This document shows positions 2,288 to 18,516 of a stretch of DNA of 21,472 nt, in pieces. The translations under genes and the position numbers were made by a program. Below the pieces are notes generated by a model. It was not told where the DNA came from and did not search any database. It was given only the letters and a program-made list of their open reading frames with translations. This DNA comes from an uncultured virus (IMG/VR IMGVR_UViG_3300031853_000016) (lineage: Duplodnaviria > Heunggongvirae > Uroviricota > Caudoviricetes). The stretch's first letter is position 1, and each line of letters begins with the position of its first letter. The stretch lies in the IMG/VR virus record IMGVR_UViG_3300031853_000016; one strand, 5' to 3'.

Positions 2288-4217
2288 ACTTTTTTACTTC
2301 CTTCCATGTGTATTTTTTCAGATCGCTCCACTTATAGGACGCAGCTCCTCGCCATGTGCTGAGCAGCCTGAGGTTCATGTCTTTCAATTCTGATTGCAGC
2401 ATATCCATTGTTCTGTCCTGTGGATCGTGGCCTGAGCTGACTGTGCTGCCCATGTATGACGGACGGCACAGACTTGCAGAGAGGTTTCCGAGAGTCATGC
2501 TGATAATGTCGCCTGTTATCTCGTTCTTTTCTACAGCTGTTATCTGCTGCACTGTTGATATATCCAGCTCGGGACAGTATATCGTTCCCCTGTCTCCGTA
2601 GTTGTAGTTCTGGAGGTCAAGGAAATCAGCATATCGAGGATCGTGCATCAGATTAGCGATCTTAAGTTCATATGTCACCTTCGGAGCGCACACCTGATTC
2701 CAGTACGCCATAGCGTCAGCTGCGAGGCGCTCCATTGAGCCCTCGAACCGATCATAGTTGAACTTCATCATTCTGCGCTTAGCGTGATGCACTGCCCATG
2801 CTGATGTGGGAGTATAAGACACCGCGAAGAAATTCCCGAAGTTGTCATAACAGTTCAGATTCGTGCAGAAATCCGTGTAGTCAACCTTCTGGCGTATCTC
2901 GACCATGTCGAGGCTGTACCTGAGATAAAAAGCGTCGTCCTTAGCAAACTGCATACGCTTGCAGACCGAGAAGTAAAAGTTATCCCTGTAGATCTCACCG
3001 CCGAAACGATTTATCATGCAGTTATCCACACCTGCTATAGCGCCCCAAAGCGTAACGTTCTCGTACTCGTCCACTCCTGCGATCTCGTCGCAGTCCGAAT
3101 AGCCCGTGAAGTCGTAAGGTTTATTATAGTAATCAAGCGGATTCCAGGGTACTTTTGCATTAAAAGCCCAGTTGATAAACTGCTGACCTGTACCGCCGTT
3201 GAAGATGCCGTGCTCGATTAGATCATCTGCCATATCTCCTGATATGTGCTTTGCATTGATTTTCATGGAACCACCCGAAGGACCTATATAAGGCTCCTGA
3301 GCATATATGCGGAAGAGCTGACCGTCAATCTTAAGGATATTCTGCACAAGCAGGAACTTCCATTTCCCCCAGTCGTCCAAAGGATGCACAAGCTCTATGT
3401 CCCACCTGTCCTTATCGTGATAGCTGGTACAGCTTATAGGATCCAGAATAGCAAGGCCGTTATGACGGAAACCGTTCTGCGGCTCGGAAATATCGTATAC
3501 CCTGATAACATGGTCACGCTCGAGGGGATCCATTTTGTATCGGGTAACATCAGGCAGCAGCTTATGCCACTGATAACCGTCGTCAGTCAGTCCGTCAACT
3601 CGCCAGACCGAGTCCGGCATAGAGGTAAGCATCGGCGGATCAGCTTCGGCAAGTCCGTCCTCGTGTCCGATGTTCTTATACTCTCCCTCGTCACTGAGGA
3701 AGTATGAAGTGTAGATATCAAGGTCTGCGGCAACAAGGAAGGTGTTCGTTCCTGCTCTGTCACGCGGAACGTCAGCATAGTCGTAGTAGAACTTACTGCC
3801 TGAACCCGAGATCATCAGTCGGAAGTGTGTTGCGTTCGGCATTACCGGAGTTACAGCAATGTCAGCCTCGTCTGTATCATCCGCTACCGTACACGTCAGT
3901 GTTGTCTGACCGAGGAACAGCACATTCTGTCCGTCTCTTGTATAGTACCAGCGCACCGCCTTAGTACCGCCATTCACATCTGTTATCTCTTCGCTGTAAG
4001 CCTGAGTCTGTGAATTGTAAGTGACCTTTGACTGCTGGATATTGCACTTCAGCTTAATCCCTGTTGCAGGCGTTTCCAGCGCTATGAGGTCGGAAAGCAG
4101 ATACGTATTGCTTTCTGTGATCGTCGCTCCGCTGACTCCGTATGTCTCATAGCTCCCTACCGATGCCGAGGCTCTCAGATTCTCCATAGGCGGCGTACTA
4201 TATGTGTGTGTATCCAT
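2268..4217 (-). CDS. Tail tip/hub protein (Tal-like, prophage tail endopeptidase family) with extra N-terminal domain
   Basis: Core begins near VIRVYD...FRHNGLAILDP and includes GQLFRIY, AKHISGD, RFGGEIYRDNF and GDRGTIYCPELDI. Lies downstream of Dit. Confidence 0.75.
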   Translation of the reverse strand: MDTHTYSTPPMENLRASASVGSYETYGVSGATITESNTYLLSDLIALETPATGIKLKCNIQQSKVTYNSQTQAYSEEITDVNGGTKAVRWYYTRDGQNVLFLGQTTLTCTVADDTDEADIAVTPVMPNATHFRLMISGSGSKFYYDYADVPRDRAGTNTFLVAADLDIYTSYFLSDEGEYKNIGHEDGLAEADPPMLTSMPDSVWRVDGLTDDGYQWHKLLPDVTRYKMDPLERDHVIRVYDISEPQNGFRHNGLAILDPISCTSYHDKDRWDIELVHPLDDWGKWKFLLVQNILKIDGQLFRIYAQEPYIGPSGGSMKINAKHISGDMADDLIEHGIFNGGTGQQFINWAFNAKVPWNPLDYYNKPYDFTGYSDCDEIAGVDEYENVTLWGAIAGVDNCMINRFGGEIYRDNFYFSVCKRMQFAKDDAFYLRYSLDMVEIRQKVDYTDFCTNLNCYDNFGNFFAVSYTPTSAWAVHHAKRRMMKFNYDRFEGSMERLAADAMAYWNQVCAPKVTYELKIANLMHDPRYADFLDLQNYNYGDRGTIYCPELDISTVQQITAVEKNEITGDIISMTLGNLSASLCRPSYMGSTVSSGHDPQDRTMDMLQSELKDMNLRLLSTWRGAASYKWSDLKKYTWKEVKKYGNKDT

Positions 4218-4228
4218 ATGCTCACCGC

Positions 4229-5146
4229 CTAATCAACAGCTTTATGCAGTGGGAATCCGGCAGCGAGGATCTCTTCCTGTTGCGTCCTGGACTGGGTTTC
4301 GTTAACGACGAGAACATGCTCGTCCCATGTCGCAATGTTCGGGCGGACTATGTCTCCCGTGTAGTCGCGGTCGATTTTCAGAGATATCCCGGAACCGTTA
4401 TATTTCACGCCCTTGTTCGTCTGTAGTCTTATGACGTTGAGTGCGCTTGCCGTTGTGCCTATTAAGAGCTTGCCATCTCCTGTGCCATCTCTCAGATATG
4501 TACCTGATACGATGCTGTTGTAGAGTGTGGTCATTCTGAACATATGCTCTGAATCGCTTGACACGGTGCTCTTATCTTGCACATCCATATGTAGTCTGCT
4601 ATGCTTGATATCGAATGAACCGTAATTAGACAGAGAACGTGTATATACAAATGACGTATTTGCTATACCATACACGTACGAGCCGAATTGATTAAGCGTT
4701 ACTTTTCTTCCGGGCGTTACAATGAAACTGTAGTTTTCAGCGCTGAATTCCAGCGATATTGTAACGTTGTCAAGTGCAGAATAGTCATTTGTAAAAATTC
4801 GGATAAACTCATGCTGGTTTGTATTCTGTGAATCATGTCTTGCGTTGGTTATTCGCAGATTCGACAGGCTTTGTGCAGCTTCTGAATAGCCGTTGCCGAG
4901 CTGAAAAGCTATTTGAGCTGTGCTGTAAAAGTTCCTCAACTCCCAACCGTTGAAGTCGATGATGCCTTTCATTGCTATGGTTTCTGTGAATCCTTGTGGA
5001 TTGATTTCGTTAAAGTCAACAACTTTATCCTCAGCATCGTCCCATACGATATACGTTGTGGAGCTTATGTTGCAGACTGTGAGAAAATCGTCCCAGTTAC
5101 CGACGATATACGGATCCATCTGTGTTCCTGAGCCTGTAGCAGCCAT
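4229..5146 (-). CDS. Putative tail-associated structural protein
   Basis: 305-aa ORF abutting Dit. N-terminal GSGTQMDPYIV motif (GSGT-x-x-DPY type); beta-rich composition. Confidence 0.6.
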   Translation of the reverse strand: MAATGSGTQMDPYIVGNWDDFLTVCNISSTTYIVWDDAEDKVVDFNEINPQGFTETIAMKGIIDFNGWELRNFYSTAQIAFQLGNGYSEAAQSLSNLRITNARHDSQNTNQHEFIRIFTNDYSALDNVTISLEFSAENYSFIVTPGRKVTLNQFGSYVYGIANTSFVYTRSLSNYGSFDIKHSRLHMDVQDKSTVSSDSEHMFRMTTLYNSIVSGTYLRDGTGDGKLLIGTTASALNVIRLQTNKGVKYNGSGISLKIDRDYTGDIVRPNIATWDEHVLVVNETQSRTQQEEILAAGFPLHKAVD

Positions 5147-5863: not shown

Positions 5864-8800
5864 TATATCAACCCCATTCCTGCTTCATATACTTTTTCTG
5901 CATTCGCCAGTTCTTCGGCGAGCCTGTAGACATCATATCTGCTTGATACGTTCGCCTTGATGTTGTAATACTTGTTAATTACTGTATGGCCACCGCTCAG
6001 CTCGACAGGAGTATTCTTAGCTCTGCCTGTAAGCGGAGTGATACGGGCGGTTCCGTTATTGATGCTTATGAGTTCGGGACCTGCCTCCGCTACTATTCCC
6101 TGTCCTTCTCTGAGCGTACCGCCTTCTGCATATAAGCCGATGTGCCTGAACACATCTTCAAGCTGTCCGCCTATATATCTGCCTGCGAAGCCGCCGGAGT
6201 TCGATATCATATCAATACTGTCATGTATCTCTGCAATGTACCGTTCAGCTGTGTCTCTGGTCATGGAACCAAGGACTTCACCCATTGATATACCTGTCGC
6301 CTCGCAGAAGTCCATAAGCGCCTGAGTATCAAAACCGTCTATCTGAGACAGCTCATTGACTATTCCTGTGCTGAGGAGCTCGCCTGCACTGATGCCGCCT
6401 TCCTTTGCCTGCCGTGTAATATCGTCAACAGTAGACTTAAAGGTCTTTTTCGCATTTCTGTCTCCGAGCTCAATATTGTTTTCATACTCTTTTTCTGCAC
6501 TTCTTACAGCATCAATAAAGCTCTTTTTCAGATCTTCGGTATTACCTTTAGCATTGAGCAGAGCAGCATATTCCAGGTCTCCGATATGCGAGAGCATCAT
6601 CTGCACGTTATAGTAGTTGTTATTGCACATCTGCTCGACAGCAGATTCATAGTTTTCAACGATAGATTGATTGTCCCTGAACTCTTCCTTCAAGGTTTCT
6701 ATAGCTTTTTCAGTTTCAGCTATGTTCTGCTCAGCTGCGATCAGGCGCTGAAGATCCTCCTGAGTCATAAATCGAGCCCATGCATCATAGTTCGCCGATG
6801 TAAACTCACCGAGCGCCGCAGTACTCTTATGCTCGGCATAGGCATTCTGCACCGCCTTTTGCCTCAGCAGTTCGATGTCGCTTCTGTTCTTAGCCGCATT
6901 ATGCTTCAATTGCTCTAATTCAGCGTTTGCCTGACCGGTTCTCAACAGAGCCTGATCATATACATCGTTATAGGCATTAAGCATTGATTCCGCTCTCTTT
7001 TTCTGAATAACATCATCGATACTTTGCTTAAGTTCACCGTATTTCTGTATCTGACCGTCAATATACTCTATCTCAATACCTGTAGCCTCAGAAAGCTCCC
7101 CGACTATATACTCAACTCTGTCCTCATATCCGCTTTTGACTTTACCGTTAGTGTCTACAAGTGTTCTCAGCTCATCATACAGTATCTTGGTCTGATCGAT
7201 AAGCTGTTTATCCGAAAGGATCTGCTTGTCAGCGTTATCTTTCATATCAGCCATAACCGATATGTTATTGTTGAGCTCGTCAGTCAGCCTGTTGGTCTCG
7301 GCAGCAGCTTCCTCAAACACTTTTTCAAGGTGTGCTTCCTCGATTCTTTTAGATGCTGTTACAAATGCAACAGCTATACCGGGAACGCCCCACGAAATGT
7401 ATTTTATTATTTCGGAAACAACTATAGACAGATCTTTTCCTTTTTCAATGATGTCAGGCAGATTTTTCAACACATACTTAACTGCTTCGGCACCCTTTTT
7501 CAGTACCGGTTCAAGAGCTCTCCCGACCTTCGGGACCTGCTCTGTCGCATACTGGACTACATCACGCAACACAGGCTGCAAGCCTTTGGATAGCTGTATC
7601 TTTGCGCCGTCCACAGCAGATTGGAATTTTGTAATATCACCTGCAAGATTATCCTGCATTGTTTCAGCCATGTTCTGAGCTGCTCCGTCGCAGTTCTTTA
7701 TAGCACCGGAGAGCTTTTCCACATCGGCAGGAGCTGCATTAACAAGAGCCAGGAAGCCTGACATTGCATTCTTGCCGACAAGAGTCTCAGCCTCATTAGC
7801 TTTTTCGGACTCTGTAAGTCCTTCAAATGCATCCCTTGTATCAGCAATGATATCAGCAAAGCTTCTCATCGTTCCGTCAGCGTTCTGCGTCTTGATAGTG
7901 ACGTCGCCTATCTTTTCACCTGATATAGTAAAATCGTTTGTCAGGTTGCTCATGATAGTTCTGAGCGCTGTACCTGCCTGCGATGCCTTGATTCCGCTGT
8001 TTGCCATAAGTCCGATAGCAAGAGCAGTATCTTCGGCAGTGTAGCCTAAAGCACCTGCTATAGGTGCTGCATACTTAAACGTCTCGCCCATCATGCTGAC
8101 ATTAGTATTTGCGTTTGACGACGCTGCCGCAAGCACATCGGCGAAGTGTCCTGCGTCCCCGGCTTTAAGTCCGAAGGCAGTAAGGGCATCGGTAACGATA
8201 TCCGATGTAATACCGAGATCCTCTCCCGAAGCTGCCGCAAGTCCGAGGATACCGTCTATACCGCTGAGCATATCCTCAGTCTTCCAGCCTGCCATTGCCA
8301 TGTAGTTGAAAGCTTCCGCGGACTGTTCTGCTGTGAACTTTGTAGCCGAGCCCATTTCTATAGCTTTCTCTCTCAGCTGGTCTACTTCTTCAGCAGATGC
8401 CTGAGAGATAGCAGCGACCTGACCTATAGCGGCATCGAATGCGGCGCCTGTCCCGATCACGTCCGTAGTCAGTTCCTTAAACTCACGGGCGGCAAAACGT
8501 ATGCCGTCGGTCACAAGGTTGGCAAGCACGCCTTTCATGACAGTAAAACCGCCATTTGATGCACGTTCTGCCTGTACACCTGCCTCCTCGGTCTCTCTGC
8601 CGAGCTCATCTACGTCATCAGCTGCGGAATCGGATGCATGCCCAAGTTCCCAGAGCTTATCATTCGCAGAGGATAACTGATTCTCATACTTTTTTACTTC
8701 AGCTCTTGTGTATTCAATTTCACGCTGAAAGACTCTGTACTGTTCTTCATTGATTGTCTTATCTGCAAGCTGCTGCTTAACTTGTGACTGTGCTTCGAGC

Positions 8801-11777: not shown

Positions 11778-12935
11778 TTATGATGCCTTGACCTTAAGAA
11801 CAGCAAGCTTCTGCTCGTCTGTGACCTTGCTGTCGAACTCAAACCAACAGTCGATGCCGATTGCGTGCTGAGTGTGATATGCTTCTCTGAGCACCTCAAT
11901 ACCGATATCCTCGCGGAAGTTTACAGAGAGACCGCTGTAGTCACCGTAGAGCACCGCAAGCTTGTTGCCGCCAATCTCGTCCATATTGTCAGAGAGGTAT
12001 ACAGGCTTTCCGAGGAGTCGGTAAGGGAACTCAGATGATACATCAGGCTGAATCAGAGGTCTGTTGTCTCCGTCCTTAAGCTGCTTGATAACTGTGAATG
12101 TTGCAGGAGTCATAGTCCAGCAAGCTTTCTTCTGGTGTGCCTGCTTAACAGCCGACTGGAGTGCGATAAGATCATCAAGACCAATGGTAAGTGCTGTACC
12201 TGTAGTAACAACATTTGTTGTCTTAACTGCGCCCTGTGCAGCACTTGAACCGCTACCCTTAAGGAGCTCTCCCTCGAGGAACTGTGCAGCCTTTTCAGCG
12301 ATCTTGCGGATAACGAACTCTGTAACGTTGACTGCTGCGCTGTTGATAACGCTCTTGCCAACAAGTACGAGAGCGCCTGCAAGATAACCGCCAAGATCTA
12401 CAGAAGCGAATTTACCGCTGTCTGCTGTGAGAGGAGTGAACTCTGTTGCATATCCTACAGTCACATCATGTGTAGAGTTTGCCTTTGTCCACTTCGGGAT
12501 CTTAAGAACGCCTTTTTCGTGGTATACGTCAGCTCCTGCAAGGATAGGACAGATATCAACGACAGCGTCGATGATACGCTTAGCAATAGTAGTCGGGATA
12601 ACTGCACCGTTGTTGTTAGTCCAGTCAACGTTCTGCTCGCCTGCTCTCATCTCGGTGATCTTACCGTTAAGGAAGTCGGTGAAAGCTCTCTCCTCGATCT
12701 GCTCCTGTGTGAGCTTCTCTGTCTGCTGTGCTGCCTGAGGGACGTGGAGCTCAGATATACCTTTAGCTCTCTCTTCCTTCTCGATAGTTGCATCGAGAGA
12801 CTTTATCTCTGCCTCGAGTGCATCAAATGCAGCAGTCTCCTCCTCGTTGAACGCACGCTCCTCAGCCTTTACAGTGTCAAGCATGGACTGAAGCTCTGCT
12901 TTCTTTTTGTTTCTGAGTTCAATAAGCTTTTTCAT
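11778..12935 (-). CDS. Major capsid protein, HK97 family, with N-terminal delta (scaffold) domain
   Basis: Coiled-coil first ~98 aa, then GAVIPTTIAKRII, LKDGDNRPL, RLLGKPVYLSDNM and YGDYS. Confidence 0.95.
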   Translation of the reverse strand: MKKLIELRNKKKAELQSMLDTVKAEERAFNEEETAAFDALEAEIKSLDATIEKEERAKGISELHVPQAAQQTEKLTQEQIEERAFTDFLNGKITEMRAGEQNVDWTNNNGAVIPTTIAKRIIDAVVDICPILAGADVYHEKGVLKIPKWTKANSTHDVTVGYATEFTPLTADSGKFASVDLGGYLAGALVLVGKSVINSAAVNVTEFVIRKIAEKAAQFLEGELLKGSGSSAAQGAVKTTNVVTTGTALTIGLDDLIALQSAVKQAHQKKACWTMTPATFTVIKQLKDGDNRPLIQPDVSSEFPYRLLGKPVYLSDNMDEIGGNKLAVLYGDYSGLSVNFREDIGIEVLREAYHTQHAIGIDCWFEFDSKVTDEQKLAVLKVKAS

Positions 12936-13507
12936 AATTCTTTGATCCTTCTTTCGTAATCAGTGTAATCGGGTTTATTTTCGTATGTGATATACTCAGG
13001 CGGTACATCCATACCGCGCTGTTCCAGGTCGACAGCTTCGCCGGCACGGCACTCCACCGAAGTAGCAGCATAACAAGGGATCTTGTCCTTGATAAGAGAT
13101 ATGTGGTCGAGCATAAGGCTTTTAACGTGCCTTATCGGGAGCTCATCCTCTCCCCTTTTCTCCATTTCGTCCTGTACGTTGTACATTCCGAAGCTCCAGC
13201 CTCTGAGCTTGCCTTTTCGTGCCATTTCAATGACTGTTTCATCGGTGATGAGTACGTCGGCGTGGAGTCCGATAGCGTCCTCTTTCAGCGTCAGAGTGCC
13301 GTCACGGGTACTTGCATAGGCGTGTCCCTGATCGTGATCGAGGGTAACGGTTATATCACCGTTCTTCTTGATAGCCTCCGCAAAAGCCCTCTCCTCGATA
13401 GTTTCAAGGACTTTGCCCCTTGGAGTTATCACAGGCCTGCTCAGCTTGCCGGTGACATTGACGTAGCCGCTTATATGCAGGCCGTCAGCTCTTAGTTCTA
13501 TACGCAT
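12932..13507 (-). CDS. HK97-family prohead protease
   Basis: ISGYVN, ETIEERAF, LDHD, LKEDAIGL and LRGWSFG (catalytic His and Ser contexts). Overlaps the capsid start by ATGA-like coupling. Confidence 0.93.
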   Translation of the reverse strand: MRIELRADGLHISGYVNVTGKLSRPVITPRGKVLETIEERAFAEAIKKNGDITVTLDHDQGHAYASTRDGTLTLKEDAIGLHADVLITDETVIEMARKGKLRGWSFGMYNVQDEMEKRGEDELPIRHVKSLMLDHISLIKDKIPCYAATSVECRAGEAVDLEQRGMDVPPEYITYENKPDYTDYERRIKEL

Positions 13508-13588: not shown

Positions 13589-13831
13589 TTATTCAGTTAT
13601 GACAACATTCTCGAACTTCTTGTAAGCGTCGAGATACCATTCCTTCTTGTCGCCGTTGTATGTCAGCTCGTAGTACATACCATCAGGCAGCGAACTTGAC
13701 AGCAAATACTTCCAGTTCTGCAACGCCTTACACTTCCAGACGGTGTATACTTCAAACTCAGGCTTCTGGTCTGACTTGTCAAGGTGCCCTTCGATGTAGT
13801 CTCTGACTATCTGTAAAGCCTTCTCGTCCAT
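13589..13831 (-). CDS. Small phage protein, DUF6275-like (moron-like insertion in the head module)
   Basis: VYTVWKCKALQNWKYLLSS...DGMYYELTYNGDKKEWYLDAYKKFEN. The GGAGGAGGTG RBS places the start at MDEK (13831). Confidence 0.8.
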   Translation of the reverse strand: MDEKALQIVRDYIEGHLDKSDQKPEFEVYTVWKCKALQNWKYLLSSSLPDGMYYELTYNGDKKEWYLDAYKKFENVVITE

Positions 13832-13857
13832 TCTTCTCACCTCCTCCAAATGGGCAT

Positions 13858-13895: not shown

Positions 13896-14132
13896 TTATG
13901 CGTGAATAATGCTATACAAATCATCGATGATAGATACAGCCATATCGCCTCTTTTGCCGATAGATGATGAAGTATCATCGCCAGCCATAAAGTTTTCATA
14001 GCTTTCATCTGTTTCAATGTCAAAACACTTCAAACGAATCTCTTCAACTGCTTTCTTATCGGAATAATCTATTTCAGTTATCCCGAATTCATTTTTCAGA
14101 AATTCAAGCTGTTTTGAATTCAACGTTTTCAT
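13896..14132 (-). CDS. Putative immunity protein for the portal-fused toxin domain
   Basis: 78 aa, acidic, AT-rich. Its ATG directly abuts the portal TAA, and its GGAGGGTG RBS is embedded in the last portal codons (LEGD). Function is inferred from position. Confidence 0.6.
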   Translation of the reverse strand: MKTLNSKQLEFLKNEFGITEIDYSDKKAVEEIRLKCFDIETDESYENFMAGDDTSSSIGKRGDMAVSIIDDLYSIIHA

Positions 14133-15764
14133 TTAATCACCCTCCAAGAGTATAGCCGTGATCATTAGACCGGAAGTTTCATAAACTAATCTGATATTGC
14201 CCTTCTGGACACACTTGCGATTAGGCTTATTTCCAGGATATGTACTTGTTGGATTGCTTAAAACATCTTTTACAGTACCGGAAGATATTCCTCTTTCAAT
14301 CATACGATCAGCAGTATGCGGTATCATTGACTGAATAACAGTTCCGTCTGCTGCTTTTGTACCTTTAATGTCTTTTATAAACTTTTTGCGTTGCTCTGGT
14401 GTTGCTTTTATTATACCACTTTTCTGAGATTTGTCAACACTTTTCCCGGATTTTCCACCTGCTCCGCTGGAAGAACTGCCGCCTGATCCTTTGCTTCCGG
14501 TAAAGTAACCGTGTGCTCCTTTAGTCCAGCTGTCTCCTCTTGCTCTCTCTTCGCCTGTTTTCAGGTTCTTTGTCTGTCCTGTATTCGGTGTGAATACGTC
14601 CATAGTCTCAGGATTGAGGAGAACGTCCTGGAGTCCCAGTTTGACGAAGTTGAAGCCGAGCGGTTCATAGTCCTCTTCACGGCGTATCTCGTCTATCTGA
14701 AGGATATTATTGCGGACAGCGACTTCATAAGCATCGTAGCGCTCCTTCATGCTGCCGCGTGTCAGTTCTTTCGTATCAAATGCCCAGTAATAGCCCTGCT
14801 CCTTCTCTGATTCAAGCAGCAGAACGTTGTCAAGCTCCGTTTCTATCTGATTCAGGAGGGATATGACCGCAGAAATAAACTTCTTGTTGTCGTCCTCGGA
14901 AGCGCCGCCGTCAATGACCGTATGAGGGAAGCCAAACAGCTTGCATATTTCAATACTGTTGGTCTTCTTGTTCTCGTTCATCTGAAGCTCTGCCGCCGTT
15001 GAAGAAATAGCCTCGAAGTCTACACCGTCATTCAGTACGACGATCTTATCACGCTTCTCCTCGTTGTCATAGACCTTCTGATATCCTTCCTTGATAGCAG
15101 CTATTGCCGCATCCGAGAGCCTGTTCTTCGATTTCAGGAAGCCCGGTTTGCATCCGCCGTTGGAGTTCATCATGTTTTCGAGCTTCAGAGCGTTCCATGC
15201 AGCTGATAGTATCGATGATGCTTCCTCTTGCAGCGGAATATTTGTATATCCGTCACGAGTTTTGCGCAGCAGCTTGACGAACTGGAAGTCATAATACGTC
15301 TGTGCGTTTATCTGAACTCGGAAAGCCTTGAATATCGGATCCGTGTTGCAGAGTATACTGACACTGCGGCTGTCCACATAGTGCAGGCTCCTGACGCTCA
15401 GGCTGTCACTGTTGACGTATATCCAGGCTCCGCGGCCGAGATAGTAGTCCTCGACAGCTGCTTTCCACATATCAACAGTGCTCAGTGTATCGCCGGTGCT
15501 GCCGTTCAGCAGCTTTATACGCGGATCATCATATATTTCCGTGACTTCTTCTTCGTCCTTGCGGTAAAGCTTCACAGGAAGCCGTGATATTGTCTCTCCG
15601 ACCTTGTTGATGCAGGCTGATACTGTTGGTATACTGAGAGCAGCTTCACGAGTAAGCTCCCCGGTGATACCGAAGAACGTCAGTATAGATGTCTCTGCAT
15701 TCTGAACAGTATCTGCTCTTATTTCCTGTTTCTTTTTACGTCTGAAAAGTCCTATTGTGACCAC
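14133..15764 (-). CDS. HK97-family portal protein with C-terminal Gly/Ser linker and putative DUF4258-like toxin (RNase) domain
   Basis: Portal motifs AALSIPTVSACINK, ICKLFGFP, FDTKELTRG and DEIRREED occupy ~400 aa. A further ~135 aa contain GSKGSGGSSSSGAGG and PHTADRMIERGISSGTVKDVLSNP...IRLVYE...ITAI. The true start may be ATA at 15755. Confidence 0.9.
   Translation of the reverse strand: MVTIGLFRRKKKQEIRADTVQNAETSILTFFGITGELTREAALSIPTVSACINKVGETISRLPVKLYRKDEEEVTEIYDDPRIKLLNGSTGDTLSTVDMWKAAVEDYYLGRGAWIYVNSDSLSVRSLHYVDSRSVSILCNTDPIFKAFRVQINAQTYYDFQFVKLLRKTRDGYTNIPLQEEASSILSAAWNALKLENMMNSNGGCKPGFLKSKNRLSDAAIAAIKEGYQKVYDNEEKRDKIVVLNDGVDFEAISSTAAELQMNENKKTNSIEICKLFGFPHTVIDGGASEDDNKKFISAVISLLNQIETELDNVLLLESEKEQGYYWAFDTKELTRGSMKERYDAYEVAVRNNILQIDEIRREEDYEPLGFNFVKLGLQDVLLNPETMDVFTPNTGQTKNLKTGEERARGDSWTKGAHGYFTGSKGSGGSSSSGAGGKSGKSVDKSQKSGIIKATPEQRKKFIKDIKGTKAADGTVIQSMIPHTADRMIERGISSGTVKDVLSNPTSTYPGNKPNRKCVQKGNIRLVYETSGLMITAILLEGD
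14410..14437 (-). promoter_or_regulatory. Internal SigA-type promoter inside the portal-toxin linker
   Basis: TTGACA (14437-14432), a 16-nt spacer ending TGG, then TATAAT (14415-14410). Both hexamers are perfect and there is an extended -10 TG. Confidence 0.8.
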
Positions 15765-15770
15765 TTCCTT

Positions 15771-17498
15771 TCAAATTATCTGACATCCAAAGCTCTGCTC
15801 GATGTTGTCCAGTACGTCCACTTGCAGCAGGAACAGCGCATTAATGATCGATACGACCATATCCACCTTGCCAGCTGACTTCTTCTTGTTGACGTACTGA
15901 TTCAGGTTTGTGTCCCTTGTGCATCGGGCATTCTGGAAGTTTATCTCAAGCATATGATTTTTATCGTATCTGAATTTCTGACTGAGTATCCGTTCCCTGA
16001 GGAGCTTTGTAGGACGGTGCAGCACACTGCTGTGCTGTTTGATCTCAACGCACTCGATAGGATCCTCGCTGCTTTCGAGCTTCTGGACTGTGGATATAGC
16101 ATTGTACCGGTCAAAACCCAGCTGAACTATCTCAACTCCATATCTCTCTGGCAGTGACTGTATAAAAGCCTCAACAAAGCCGTAATCAATGACCTCGTCA
16201 CCGCAGGCAAAGCACTCGCCGTCCTCAATAAGCTTCTTATAGTCCACTTTTTCTCGTTCAGACTTCTCTTCAAGCTTTTCAGCCGGGATAAATCCCCAGA
16301 CTTTTACGTATATCAGATCTTCGTCAGCGTCATAAGTGGCTATTGCTACGGACGTATTATCATCGGTCTGCGATAGGTCAAGTCCGATATATACCCGCCT
16401 GCCCCTCCAGAACTCCGCATCCTCAGGAGCTGAGCACAGTCTGACCTTGGTTATTTCAACAAATCCCTCAACACCAAGGCCCTTGTAGAGGATATTCATG
16501 TGCTTGCAGAGAAAGTTCTCACGCTTATTTTCGTAGTCTATAGCCGCCTGACGCTTCTGCCGGAGATCATCCATGATATACTCATGAGCATAGGCTACAG
16601 GATTAGCCTGATATAAAGCAATATCCTCGGTCTTCCATTTGTCTCCCGTCTTGTATTCATCATCAGGCTCGTACAGCAGTGCAAACACCTTACCGCTGCG
16701 AAGCTTGTCGAGGATCTTCTTCGCATTATCTATCTCCTCGATCATAGCATTGTTGTCGTTAGGATACTGAGTTGATATGATGATACCAAGCTTTTCCCTG
16801 AGGACGATCTGAGATGAACGCATAGCTTCTATAGGGTAGTTGTCCATAGCTCCGCACTCGTCCGCAAGGAACATATTCGCAAGCTTACCGTCCATTCTGT
16901 CCTGTGAATAAGCGAGAGGAGTGTACTCCGATTCAGTCAGCTTGCAGCGTATTTCCTTACGCATGAGCTTGAATATCTTTTCGTCAGCCAGACAGGGGCT
17001 TGATTTGATGATCTTCTTTACTGCGATATGCAGCTCGCTTGAAAGCTTCAGATCGGGAGCCACACTGAAAAAACGGCTGAACTGCGGTTCCGTCAGCAGT
17101 CCGATAATAAAAATGACCGCTGAGGTGAACGTCTTGAAGTTCTTTCTCGCGATCTCTAAAAGCCCTGTCTCGTAGTATCTGAGACGGTCAGTACGTCGTT
17201 TCGTACAGAAAAGGGCATATATGAATAAAACTGCGTAGTCTTCAAGGCCCTCATACATGGAATGACCAAGATCGGGATGCATGATGATCTTAAGCAGCTT
17301 CGTTATTTTCTTCCAGTGCTTCTCACAAACGTAAGCATCCTCGCTCTTACCGTCTGCGATCTCGAGCCATTGCACCGCCTGGAGCTTTACATAACGGCCG
17401 ACATAATAATTATCTGGTTCGGCAGCCCAAAGAGCATATTTATAGACTCGACTTTTCTTCACTATGTCAATTGCTGTCAGCTCCTTTTTATTCATCAT
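15771..17498 (-). CDS. terL: Terminase large subunit (Terminase_1, cos-type)
   Basis: Walker A IARKNFKT, Walker B FLADE, IIIST coupling motif, nuclease YIGLDLSQTDD and KVDMVVS. Start at ATG 17498 or 17495, overlapping the TerS stop. Confidence 0.95.
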   Translation of the reverse strand: MMNKKELTAIDIVKKSRVYKYALWAAEPDNYYVGRYVKLQAVQWLEIADGKSEDAYVCEKHWKKITKLLKIIMHPDLGHSMYEGLEDYAVLFIYALFCTKRRTDRLRYYETGLLEIARKNFKTFTSAVIFIIGLLTEPQFSRFFSVAPDLKLSSELHIAVKKIIKSSPCLADEKIFKLMRKEIRCKLTESEYTPLAYSQDRMDGKLANMFLADECGAMDNYPIEAMRSSQIVLREKLGIIISTQYPNDNNAMIEEIDNAKKILDKLRSGKVFALLYEPDDEYKTGDKWKTEDIALYQANPVAYAHEYIMDDLRQKRQAAIDYENKRENFLCKHMNILYKGLGVEGFVEITKVRLCSAPEDAEFWRGRRVYIGLDLSQTDDNTSVAIATYDADEDLIYVKVWGFIPAEKLEEKSEREKVDYKKLIEDGECFACGDEVIDYGFVEAFIQSLPERYGVEIVQLGFDRYNAISTVQKLESSEDPIECVEIKQHSSVLHRPTKLLRERILSQKFRYDKNHMLEINFQNARCTRDTNLNQYVNKKKSAGKVDMVVSIINALFLLQVDVLDNIEQSFGCQII

Positions 17499-17937
17499 CA
17501 CTAAGAATTTTAAGCAGCGGATTCTCGTCCGCGGCTGCCGTCTGAGCGTTGATATTTGCAAGCTTTGCCCTGCTCTGAGGGCTGAGGCTCAGCTCGTTGC
17601 AGTATCTGAAGAAGGCTTTCGTGTAGCTGTCCTTCAGACGCACAAGAGGTCCGGAAAGTCCTTTTTCGTTGATACTCCGCTCGATCTCCTGCATGCGGTC
17701 AATGCATATGCAGCACTCGGTAAGAACATAGACGTCGAGGCTCCCGAGTATGCCCGAAGCTTCAAGGTTCGCGACGATGTACTGAAAAATACTTCTCTGT
17801 GATTCCGTCAGATACTCCGGCGGCTCAATGTCAGATGATGTGCCTTTCAGTAATTCCTCGTTGTTTTTGCGAACTTTTATCTCCTCACTGGTAAAATGCC
17901 CGACTGTTGTTGCAGCAGCTTTAGTTGGCCTTGCCAT
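17488..17937 (-). CDS. terS: Terminase small subunit, P27 family
   Basis: MARPTK start after a GGAGGTG RBS; PPEYL, LDVYVL..CC and ELSLSPQSRAKL motifs. Confidence 0.92.
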   Translation of the reverse strand: MARPTKAAATTVGHFTSEEIKVRKNNEELLKGTSSDIEPPEYLTESQRSIFQYIVANLEASGILGSLDVYVLTECCICIDRMQEIERSINEKGLSGPLVRLKDSYTKAFFRYCNELSLSPQSRAKLANINAQTAAADENPLLKILSDDE

Positions 17938-17989: not shown

Positions 17990-18050
17990 CAGAGGGGGGC
18001 GTCGTTGGACAGCTGCCCTCCCTCTGAGAGCCGCTACCCCCTGGGGGGAG
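17990..18050. other. Probable cos (cohesive end) region
   Basis: GC-rich segment between HNH and terS bounded by G/C runs (- strand CCCCCCAGGGGG...CCAACGACGCCCCCCTC). This is the usual cos location in HNH/P27-TerS phages; the exact cut site was not determined. Confidence 0.55.
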
Positions 18051-18423
18051 TGTTTTTTACAATTTTTAACAGTTTTTCGGCAGGTATCTCGCCGCTTTCC
18101 GCCAGTTCGTGATGTACTCTGCACAGCGTGATAAGGTTTTCATCTTCGAGACGCAGTTCCCAGTTTGTTTTCAGCGACTGAATGTGATGCACTGACAACT
18201 CTTCACTGTTGAATCTGCGAACAGTAAACGGCAGATTCTCAAAACAAGCACGGCAAAGATACATATCTCTTTTCAGAATGTGCTCTCTCTTGCACTTCCA
18301 AGCGTAGGACCAACGAAACAGATCTTCTCTGTTGCCGCGTTCTCCGTATGTATTCTTAGGACGCTTATCACAGCTCTCGCCCTTGCTGTGGACTTTCCCA
18401 CAATAAACACACGCCTTTTTCAT
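18034..18423 (-). CDS. Terminase-associated HNH endonuclease (HK97 gp74-like)
   Basis: CVYCGKVH, RDMYLCRAC, VHHI...ENLITLCRVHH. The AGGAG RBS places the start at MKKAC (18423). Confidence 0.9.
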   Translation of the reverse strand: MKKACVYCGKVHSKGESCDKRPKNTYGERGNREDLFRWSYAWKCKREHILKRDMYLCRACFENLPFTVRRFNSEELSVHHIQSLKTNWELRLEDENLITLCRVHHELAESGEIPAEKLLKIVKNTPPRG

Positions 18424-18438
18424 ACGAATGCTCCTATA

Positions 18439-18474
18439 ACAGAAATACCGCTCCTGCCCGGAACGGTATCCTGT
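18439..18474 (-). terminator. Long hairpin (terminator-like) just upstream of the HNH RBS
   Basis: ACAGGATACCGTTCC-GGGCA-GGAGCGGTATTTCTGT. Confidence 0.45.
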
Positions 18475-18516
18475 GAAAAAAATCAAACGAGGTATGTCCA
18501 ACTACATGAAATCCTG

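Follow-up and report, generated by a model that had tools for sequence, protein, structure and literature searches.

How a toxin that is built into a structural protein of a phage head could ever leave that head is the question raised by one gene in a 21,472-nucleotide stretch of DNA from an uncultured virus of the Caudoviricetes (IMG/VR record IMGVR_UViG_3300031853_000016; the whole stretch is called the window below). The gene encodes a portal protein whose core matches the portal family PF04860 over the entire profile (residues 46-365 against positions 1-321 of 321; E 5.2e-45, 154.4 bits with a cut-off of 39.1). Portals of related phages, 387-404 residues in length, stop at about residue 410 of the window portal, which therefore possesses an extension of ~135 residues with a predicted toxin domain at its end. 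Since the portal as carrier never leaves the virion, a release step is required; in the portions of the literature examined, the way in which a toxin attached to a structural component of the head is freed is not addressed. We propose that the prohead protease of the phage would cut the extension from the portal core, at a tetrapeptide also found at the scaffold boundary of the capsid protein, and thereby free a toxin fragment inside the head. We assign this mechanism as a whole a probability of roughly 0.5.

The tetrapeptide, E-x-R-A, has a highly uneven distribution. Thirty-three minus-strand open reading frames (ORFs), 6888 residues in total, were taken as genes, and all nine occurrences of E-x-R-A fall within the capsid, protease and portal proteins (1119 residues), the three that are present in proheads, with none in the other 30 ORFs (5769 residues); about 2.1 would be expected from composition across the 33 ORFs. 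The nine had been listed as hexapeptides in a preliminary description of this DNA, and each of them was recovered at its residue in the three proteins. The motif at 14541-14552 indeed encodes E405-E-R-A408 at the portal junction, and the mature part of the capsid protein, which had been described as free of the motif, contains none in residues 98-385. When residues were shuffled 20000 times within each head-protein segment, the shuffled segments held 0.37 sites on average and 5 at most, in a test that counts eight of the nine sites because dividing the capsid at residue 97 breaks one. Control motifs gave head/other counts of 0/1 (E.KA), 0/0 (D.RA), 0/1 (AR.E), 0/1 (R.EA), 2/1 (E.AR) and 0/2 (ER.A). 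The enrichment of E-x-R-A in the head proteins is far above chance, and it recurs in several distant relatives, with head/other counts of 7/1 in L001, 11/0 in L014, 4/0 in L037, 6/0 in L038 and 6/0 in L042. The nine sites cannot be counted as independent of one another, given that the scaffold domain consists of repetitive helical sequence rich in Glu, Arg and Ala.

This composition is also the starting point of an alternative explanation, in which E-x-R-A has no proteolytic function: it would be a helix-friendly element of the scaffold coiled coil, and its appearance in both capsid and portal would be coincidental. The high content of Glu, Arg and Ala in the scaffold is in line with this explanation, as are the conservation of E-x-RAF as a longer block, the probably structural role of one protease site (see below) and the abundance of bare E-x-R, which occurs 16 times in the head proteins and 21 times elsewhere in the window. 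Shuffling within each protein retains precisely this composition, however, and never matches the observed count. The portal side of the same explanation is considered below with the junction itself.

The junction was examined in relatives of the portal. A search with portal residues 380-543 yielded 105 proteins, nearly all of them portals, and 98 of the 105 are extension-bearing, having at least 60 residues past a conserved TPNTG; their extensions span 68-291 residues past the junction motif. Conservation of the motif in homologues, named in the preliminary description as a check on the proposed release, was borne out: E-x-R-A is present in 97 of the 98, placed eight residues after TPNTG, and the remaining protein has EERG. 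Over the 102 hits with E-x-R, which include four short portals, the Glu, Arg and Ala are fixed while the middle position, P2 of the predicted cut, varies (E 76, V 20, I 3, Q 2, S 1). In 87 distinct contexts the share of the commonest residue is at least 90% up to the junction Ala and 10-40% from the next residue on. The motif is also present in 20 of 20 distinct extension-bearing portals from loci found by peptide patterns elsewhere in the protein.

The portals that lack a full extension are informative as well. Two of them (L014 and L015, 66% identity) have neither the extension nor the junction motif, so the motif travels with the extension rather than the core. In four short portals with three distinct tails (L036 and P0103-P0105; 83% identity), the sequence stops 3-4 residues past GEERA, which looks like a loss of the cargo. 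P0102 has retained the motif with a 30-residue remnant; P0106, P0108 and P0109 have no junction motif.

AlphaFold2 (AF2) gives a predicted local distance difference test score (pLDDT) below 50 for portal residues 1-33, 409-416 and 418-450, so that both portal motifs border segments predicted to be flexible; the junction motif lies at the start of a low-confidence linker of ~42 residues. The N-terminal portal motif is kept in close relatives, and distant ones have ETRA (L042), EQRA (L037) or EIRA (L014). In L001 (Castelnaud), the portal and protease ORFs are open upstream of their annotated starts (3144-3203 and 4330-4389), and the added residues hold E-Q-R-A and E-I-R-A; the annotated starts may therefore be too far downstream.

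The flexible linker raises the possibility that the extension is released at another place or by another enzyme, for instance at a downstream E-L-R, within the Gly/Ser-rich linker, at VDKS, or by a host protease. A second E-x-R does follow within ten residues of the first in 72 of the 98 extension-bearing homologues, the linker is long, and in some phages, such as 80alpha, head proteins are processed by proteases of the host (PMC8569155). The window protein, on the other hand, has a single E-E-R-A before its linker, the first motif is more conserved than the second, and a protease gene of the phage itself lies between those for portal and capsid. We consider such a release very improbable.

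For the capsid boundary, a comparison with mapped cuts is available. In 28 distinct capsids from linked loci, the position ~12 residues before a conserved NGAVIP is occupied by E-x-R-A in 21 and by E-x-R-[A/S/G] in 24, the exceptions being HER[T/A]G (Ld17 and LL-Ku), QLRAD (L016) and QRDTA (L046). From 150 representatives of the capsid family, 123 full-length-like sequences (28-54% identity) were kept and 27 were dropped for length; the boundary region of the 123 holds E-x-R-x in 74 and E-x-R-A in 45, and E-x-R-[A/S/G] persists in relatives down to 27-44% identity. The capsid cut has been mapped to K103/S104 in HK97 (PMC10275583) and to R128/L129 in phi12 (PMC8569155), and Lys or Arg at P1 is the only feature common to the mapped phi12 cuts, in the capsid protein and in Ccm (PMC8569155). 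In our alignment R97 of the window capsid occupies column 153, phi12 R128 column 152 and HK97 K103 column 156, i.e. the predicted cut lies one column from that of phi12 and three from that of HK97. All of the mapped cuts follow Lys or Arg. Both the location of the predicted cut after Arg and its P1 residue therefore fit the mapped cuts, and we regard the capsid-boundary part of the mechanism as likely. For LL-Ku, c5 and Ld17 no mature capsid N-terminus was found in the literature; the LL-Ku record mentions only 'posttranslational modification'.

The putative enzyme belongs to the S78 family (91.1 bits against PF04586, cut-off 21), the family of HK97 gp4, and its gene lies between those of the portal and the capsid. 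His58 and Ser105 (in GWSFG), which we take to be the catalytic pair, are invariant in the alignment of S78 proteases. ECRA (152-155) and EQRG (162-165), both kept in the Ruminococcus group, fall after the catalytic domain and ahead of the C-terminal tail. In L009 the protease ORF (7503-8465) extends by ~125 residues of unrelated sequence with no capsid gene after it, and the contig may be rearranged or chimeric.

The motif is not confined to portal fusions. Stand-alone toxin genes are found in nine related loci (L004, L009, L021, L025, L026, L030, L031, L032 and L034) and among the homologues P0110-P0120. They are composed of a leader of ~25 residues, E-[I/L/M]-R-[A/G], linker types as in the portal fusions, the VDK motif and a variable toxin; for example, ...WLEIR-ARHWIKGDHGYFAGS... 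in a stand-alone protein corresponds to ...TGEER-ARGDSWTKGAHGYFTGS... in the window portal. Eleven stand-alone homologues have their first 60 residues in common and then diverge. The genes lie inside the packaging operon, in the interval from terS to terL, where they run over the end of the small-terminase gene by 8-14 nt, or in the space separating the terminase genes from the portal gene, and immunity-like ORFs follow some of them. The L034 gene (179-757) encodes a leader that duplicates the last 25 residues of the protease (hmmsearch E 1.1e-10) and continues into EER/G and the linker; this leader may have been taken over from the protease as a signal for targeting to the capsid. A hidden Markov model of the protease tail gave no significant match to the other stand-alone leaders (E 1.9-6.9 in 3567 ORFs), so that L034 is the only clear copy. 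The C-terminal tail of the HK97 protease reportedly targets that enzyme into the prohead. If this holds here, the stand-alone toxins would be cargo with a capsid-targeting leader and a release site, following the logic of the T4 internal proteins.

These genes bear on the remaining part of the non-proteolytic explanation, according to which the portal motif marks a recombination boundary comparable to the VENN motif of CdiA. Polymorphic toxins are known to recombine at conserved junctions (PMC3482391). A better recombination junction, however, exists nearer to the toxin: [VIL]DK[SATDV] stands just before the variable domain in 91 of the 98 extension-bearing homologues, and the toxin domains diverge after it. 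The motif moreover recurs after three unrelated carriers, i.e. the portal, the ~25-residue leader and the protease-tail copy, and P2 varies while P3, P1 and P1' are fixed. Thus, we judge a non-proteolytic origin of E-x-R-A in capsid and portal to be unlikely.

What would be released is a linker and a toxin domain. At least six linker types occur between the junction and VDKS (P0005-P0109; residues 409-442 in the window), all of which hold a short basic-Gly-aromatic element (GRFASGG, GKMNGS, GQFNGS, GRWAATGG, GYFTGS or GRHILIGD). The domain at residues 455-543 is modelled by AF2 with a mean pLDDT of 93.1, and its top Foldseek match is CdiA-CT of E. coli NC101 (5i4q_A; probability 0.99, E 0.027, template modelling score 0.54), followed by HigB, RelE, YoeB and colicin E5/D. 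Against the DUF4258 profile it scores 22.6 bits, under the 25-bit cut-off, which the homologues P0013 (26.9) and P0014 (25.8) pass. Among the 49 homologues scanned, the extensions belong to DUF4258 (6), Ntox50 (7) and ADP-ribosyltransferases (2), and 34 are without a match. By these sequences, the portal extensions are organised like a polymorphic toxin system, in which the portal is the conserved carrier and the C-terminal toxin domains vary.

The gene immediately downstream of the portal is consistent with this architecture. It encodes an acidic protein of 78 residues (17 Asp and Glu against 9 Lys and Arg), homologues of which, with 74-94% identity, follow the toxin in five of five other loci with the same toxin type, irrespective of whether the toxin is fused to the portal (L011) or stand-alone (L004/L020, L030 and L019). 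Other toxin types have different small ORFs downstream. We regard the 78-residue protein as a candidate immunity protein. The identity of the extension as a toxin is well supported by its fold and by this co-travelling small acidic ORF.

It is conceivable that such a toxin is not released at all, but remains tethered to the portal or acts in the producing cell before assembly, in host shut-off or as an addiction-type module checked by the 78-residue protein, and that the junction motif has no role in delivery. Cleavage and ejection are inferred steps, a long flexible linker would allow a tethered domain to fold and act, and toxin-antitoxin pairs, too, typically have an immunity-like gene next to the toxin. 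As long as it is fixed to the portal crown, however, a toxin cannot reach a target cell, and twelve 15-kDa domains would be placed at the mouth of the DNA channel. Such a role would also give no reason for the occurrence of one motif at both the portal junction and the capsid boundary, and the polymorphic C-termini with matching downstream genes, together with the stand-alone cassettes in packaging operons, resemble delivery systems of the MuF-toxin kind (PMC5576092). A tethered or producer-cell toxin is thus distinctly unlikely.

Several points weigh against release by the prohead protease at E-x-R-A. The sample of 105 portal homologues is biased toward a shared junction, as the query region included it; related sequences are not independent observations; and a low pLDDT is no proof of disorder. 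Enrichment of the motif is absent from some relatives (head/other 1/1 in LL-Ku (L003), 0/0 in L041 and 1/0 in L046), and HK97, the S78 prototype, has no E-x-R-A site in its head proteins. The motif by itself does not define a cut, because the portal-core E-x-R-A of relatives (DEIRAI, DEVRAT) sits in a conserved helix. In the protease, IEERAF (37-42) aligns with PGAF/KGAF of distant S78 proteases and is probably structural, as judged from this alignment, and the two E-x-RAF sites of the scaffold may be kept for scaffold structure. The protease of phi12 is of the ClpP type and not S78. The Lactobacillus delbrueckii phages, the closest characterised relatives, have H-E-R-[A/T]-G at the capsid boundary, with no Glu at P3. 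The literature yielded no experimental cleavage data for this phage or close relatives.

Two stronger forms of the proposal were accordingly rejected. That all nine sites are cuts is contradicted by the alignment of the protease IEERAF with PGAF/KGAF, and a universal Glu at P3 by the L. delbrueckii boundary and by HK97. The central claim of the preliminary description, that the protease frees the toxin at a junction sharing the motif of the capsid site, therefore survives in a narrowed form. It is favored by the 97 of 98 conserved junctions with their sharp fall in conservation, by E-x-R-[A/S/G] at the capsid boundary, by the alignment with the HK97 and phi12 cuts and by the motif at the leader/linker junction of the stand-alone toxins; it does not extend to every occurrence of the motif as a credible cut, nor to a Glu at P3 in the L. 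delbrueckii phages.

On this basis we infer that the protease acts at the motif, that it cuts the junction, and that the resulting fragment is toxic and leaves the head by ejection, as follows. The S78 protease, co-assembled in the prohead, would recognize Glu-x-Arg with one of the small residues Ala, Gly or Ser in the next position, and cut after the Arg. It would remove the scaffold domain at R97/A98 and fragment it at internal sites, detach its own catalytic domain from the C-terminal tail, and trim the portal at its disordered N-terminus. The fusion, present in twelve copies, would have its toxin on the inner side of the portal, at the crown, and during prohead maturation the protease would sever portal from cargo at R407/A408. 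The freed fragment of 136 residues, made up of the linker and the predicted BECR/RelE-like RNase domain, is basic (22 Lys and Arg against 11 Asp and Glu) and would remain in the head. Presumably, it exits with the DNA and acts in cells without the 78-residue immunity protein, by which prophage-carrying cells would be protected. We hold the ejection of the fragment with the DNA tentatively, with the odds slightly against it.

Trimming of a portal has precedents in lambda (B to B*) and Mu (H to H*), and the cleavage motifs of T4 and phiKZ end in Glu. In the text found of papers on T5, there is no word on portal cleavage. The T4 internal proteins and Alt have a capsid-targeting sequence that is cut by gp21 (PMC3012670), and the ejection proteins of SPN3US and phiKZ are cut by their own prohead proteases (PMC10052503). 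As far as the available text of these papers goes, the likeness consists of a prohead-loaded cargo that is trimmed by an encapsidated protease at a consensus shared with capsid and scaffold and then ejected, of which only the sharing of the motif is seen in the window. The differences are the protease family (S77/S80 versus S78), the motif, and the cargo, which in those phages serves anti-defence or takeover and is carried by a leader peptide, in contrast to polymorphic toxins on a portal. HK97 gp4/gp5 and phi12 resemble the window in the order portal, protease and capsid with N-terminal scaffold, and in a cut after a basic residue shortly before the N-arm (in the parts of the sources available), but neither portal carries cargo, HK97 lacks E-x-R-A, and the protease of phi12 differs in type.

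Toxins in phage heads are known from the MuF polymorphic toxins of temperate phages (Zhang et al. 2012, PMC3482391; Jamet et al. 2017, PMC5576092). In the text available, these share with the window variable C-terminal toxins on a conserved head protein, a gene in the packaging or head module, downstream candidate immunity genes, predicted delivery with the DNA and overlapping toxin families (Ntox50, ADP-ribosyltransferases and BECR RNases). In the window, by contrast, the carrier is the portal itself, in an HK97-like phage with a prohead protease, a scaffold-capsid fusion and a protease-type motif at the junction; the searched text of Jamet et al. (PMC5576092) contains no mention of cleavage. 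Pfam found no MuF domain (PF04233/PF06152 or MuF3/4) in the portal-toxin protein or in the two ORFs before the protease. The portal-toxin system would work like a MuF toxin and is not a member of the MuF family.

Fusions of portal domains to PBECR, 2H and InPase effector domains, predicted to be injected, have been described by Iyer et al. 2017 (PMC5512222). They are alike in carrying an effector on a portal domain with predicted injection; in the text available, that report differs in describing architectures only, with no release step, junction motif, polymorphic family with immunity genes or leader versions. CdiA-CT NC101 and RelE, HigB, YoeB and colicin E5/D are the best structural matches of the window toxin domain, which has in addition the weak sequence match to DUF4258; identity to the domain is just 10-22% and the best Foldseek E value is 0.027, and RNase activity is predicted from the fold. 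In open-access and bioRxiv papers, we found no description of a polymorphic portal-toxin family or of a prohead-protease site at such a junction. Toxin delivery by phage heads, portal-effector fusions and protease-trimmed cargo are thus already known, and a protease-type motif at the junction of a polymorphic portal toxin would be the new part.

The genomic setting is that of an HK97-like phage. The ORF listing and a Pfam scan identify the minus strand of the window as a packaging and head module (Table 1). The capsid protein matches PF05065 with 143.6 bits over residues 110-381, and its N-terminal region aligns with the scaffold domains of HK97 and phi12. Among named phages, Flavonifractor phage Castelnaud and the L. 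delbrueckii phages Ld17, LL-Ku and c5 come closest, with ~40% capsid identity; the related loci derive from Ruminococcus genomes and rumen viromes, and a prophage of R. flavefaciens SAb67 (L008) is one member of the group. At the nucleotide level, no close relative turned up in the phage collection. The record nearest to the window (G001) is a viral genome of 32,745 bp with terminal repeats that is rated 100% complete. The best explanation is that the window holds the head genes of an HK97-like phage, ~32.7 kb in size, whose host is a rumen Ruminococcus. Homologues of the DUF6275 gene are present in the related loci L005, L011, L033 and L035 and also in Faecalibacterium and Lactobacillus phages. 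An ORF upstream of the small terminase (18034-18501) has Cys pairs and an HH motif and looks HNH endonuclease-like by eye; HNH endonucleases commonly adjoin terminases in cos-type phages.

Table 1. Coordinates of genes, domains and E-x-R-A-type motifs in the window, and of stand-alone toxin genes in related loci.
Feature	Coordinates	Strand	Remarks
Large terminase	15771-17561	minus	window ORF
Portal-toxin fusion gene	14133..15764	minus	543 residues; GTG start; HK97-type portal core at about residues 1-404
Portal N-terminal motif E14-I-R-A17	15714..15725	minus	QEIRAD from residue 13; candidate N-terminal trimming site
Portal junction motif E405-E-R-A408	14541..14552	minus	GEERAR from residue 404; core/extension border; predicted cut R407/A408
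Gly/Ser-rich linker R409-A454	14403..14540	minus	includes pre-toxin motif VDKS (14427-14438)
C-terminal toxin domain T455-D543	14136..14402	minus	BECR/RelE-like RNase fold (predicted)
78-residue acidic ORF	13896..14132	minus	candidate immunity protein; abuts portal stop; no Pfam match
DUF6275 gene	13589..13849	minus	PF19791, E 2.8e-29; between immunity candidate and protease
S78 prohead protease	12932..13507	minus	191 residues; PF04586, E 1.1e-25
Protease motif ELRA	13487-13498	minus	IELRAD from residue 3
Protease motif EERA	13385-13396	minus	IEERAF from residue 37
Protease motif ECRA	13043-13054	minus	VECRAG from residue 151
Protease motif EQRG	13013-13024	minus	
HK97-fold major capsid protein	11778..12935	minus	385 residues; N-terminal scaffold (delta) domain; PF05065, E 1e-41, residues 110-381
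Capsid motif EERA	12852-12863	minus	AEERAF from residue 24
Capsid motif EERA	12765-12776	minus	KEERAK from residue 53
Capsid motif EERA	12684-12695	minus	IEERAF from residue 80
Capsid motif EMRA	12642-12653	minus	TEMRAG from residue 94; predicted maturation cut R97/A98
Stand-alone toxin gene, L004	3130-3882		leader of ~25 residues common to all stand-alone genes listed
Stand-alone toxin genes, L009	1776-2372, 4446-5213		
Stand-alone toxin gene, L025	4348-4974		
Stand-alone toxin gene, L030	2460-3212		

The sequence thus points to a testable release step, in which a maturation protease acts on a defined tetrapeptide. If this is true, capsid maturation would be linked to inter-bacterial competition in the rumen and gut, the motif would allow packaged cargo to be predicted from sequence, and the fusion would suggest, from a natural example, how proteins might be loaded into HK97-like capsids. 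A wider picture is possible, although we consider it doubtful: HK97-like phages of gut and rumen may load cargo in a modular manner, with toxin cassettes (linker, VDKS and toxin) joined via E-x-R and a small residue to a portal C-terminus, a leader or a protease-tail copy, and with the payload set free for injection by the enzyme that digests the scaffold. Such modular loading, if true, would amount to a general, sequence-readable rule for the proteins that phages pack and deliver.

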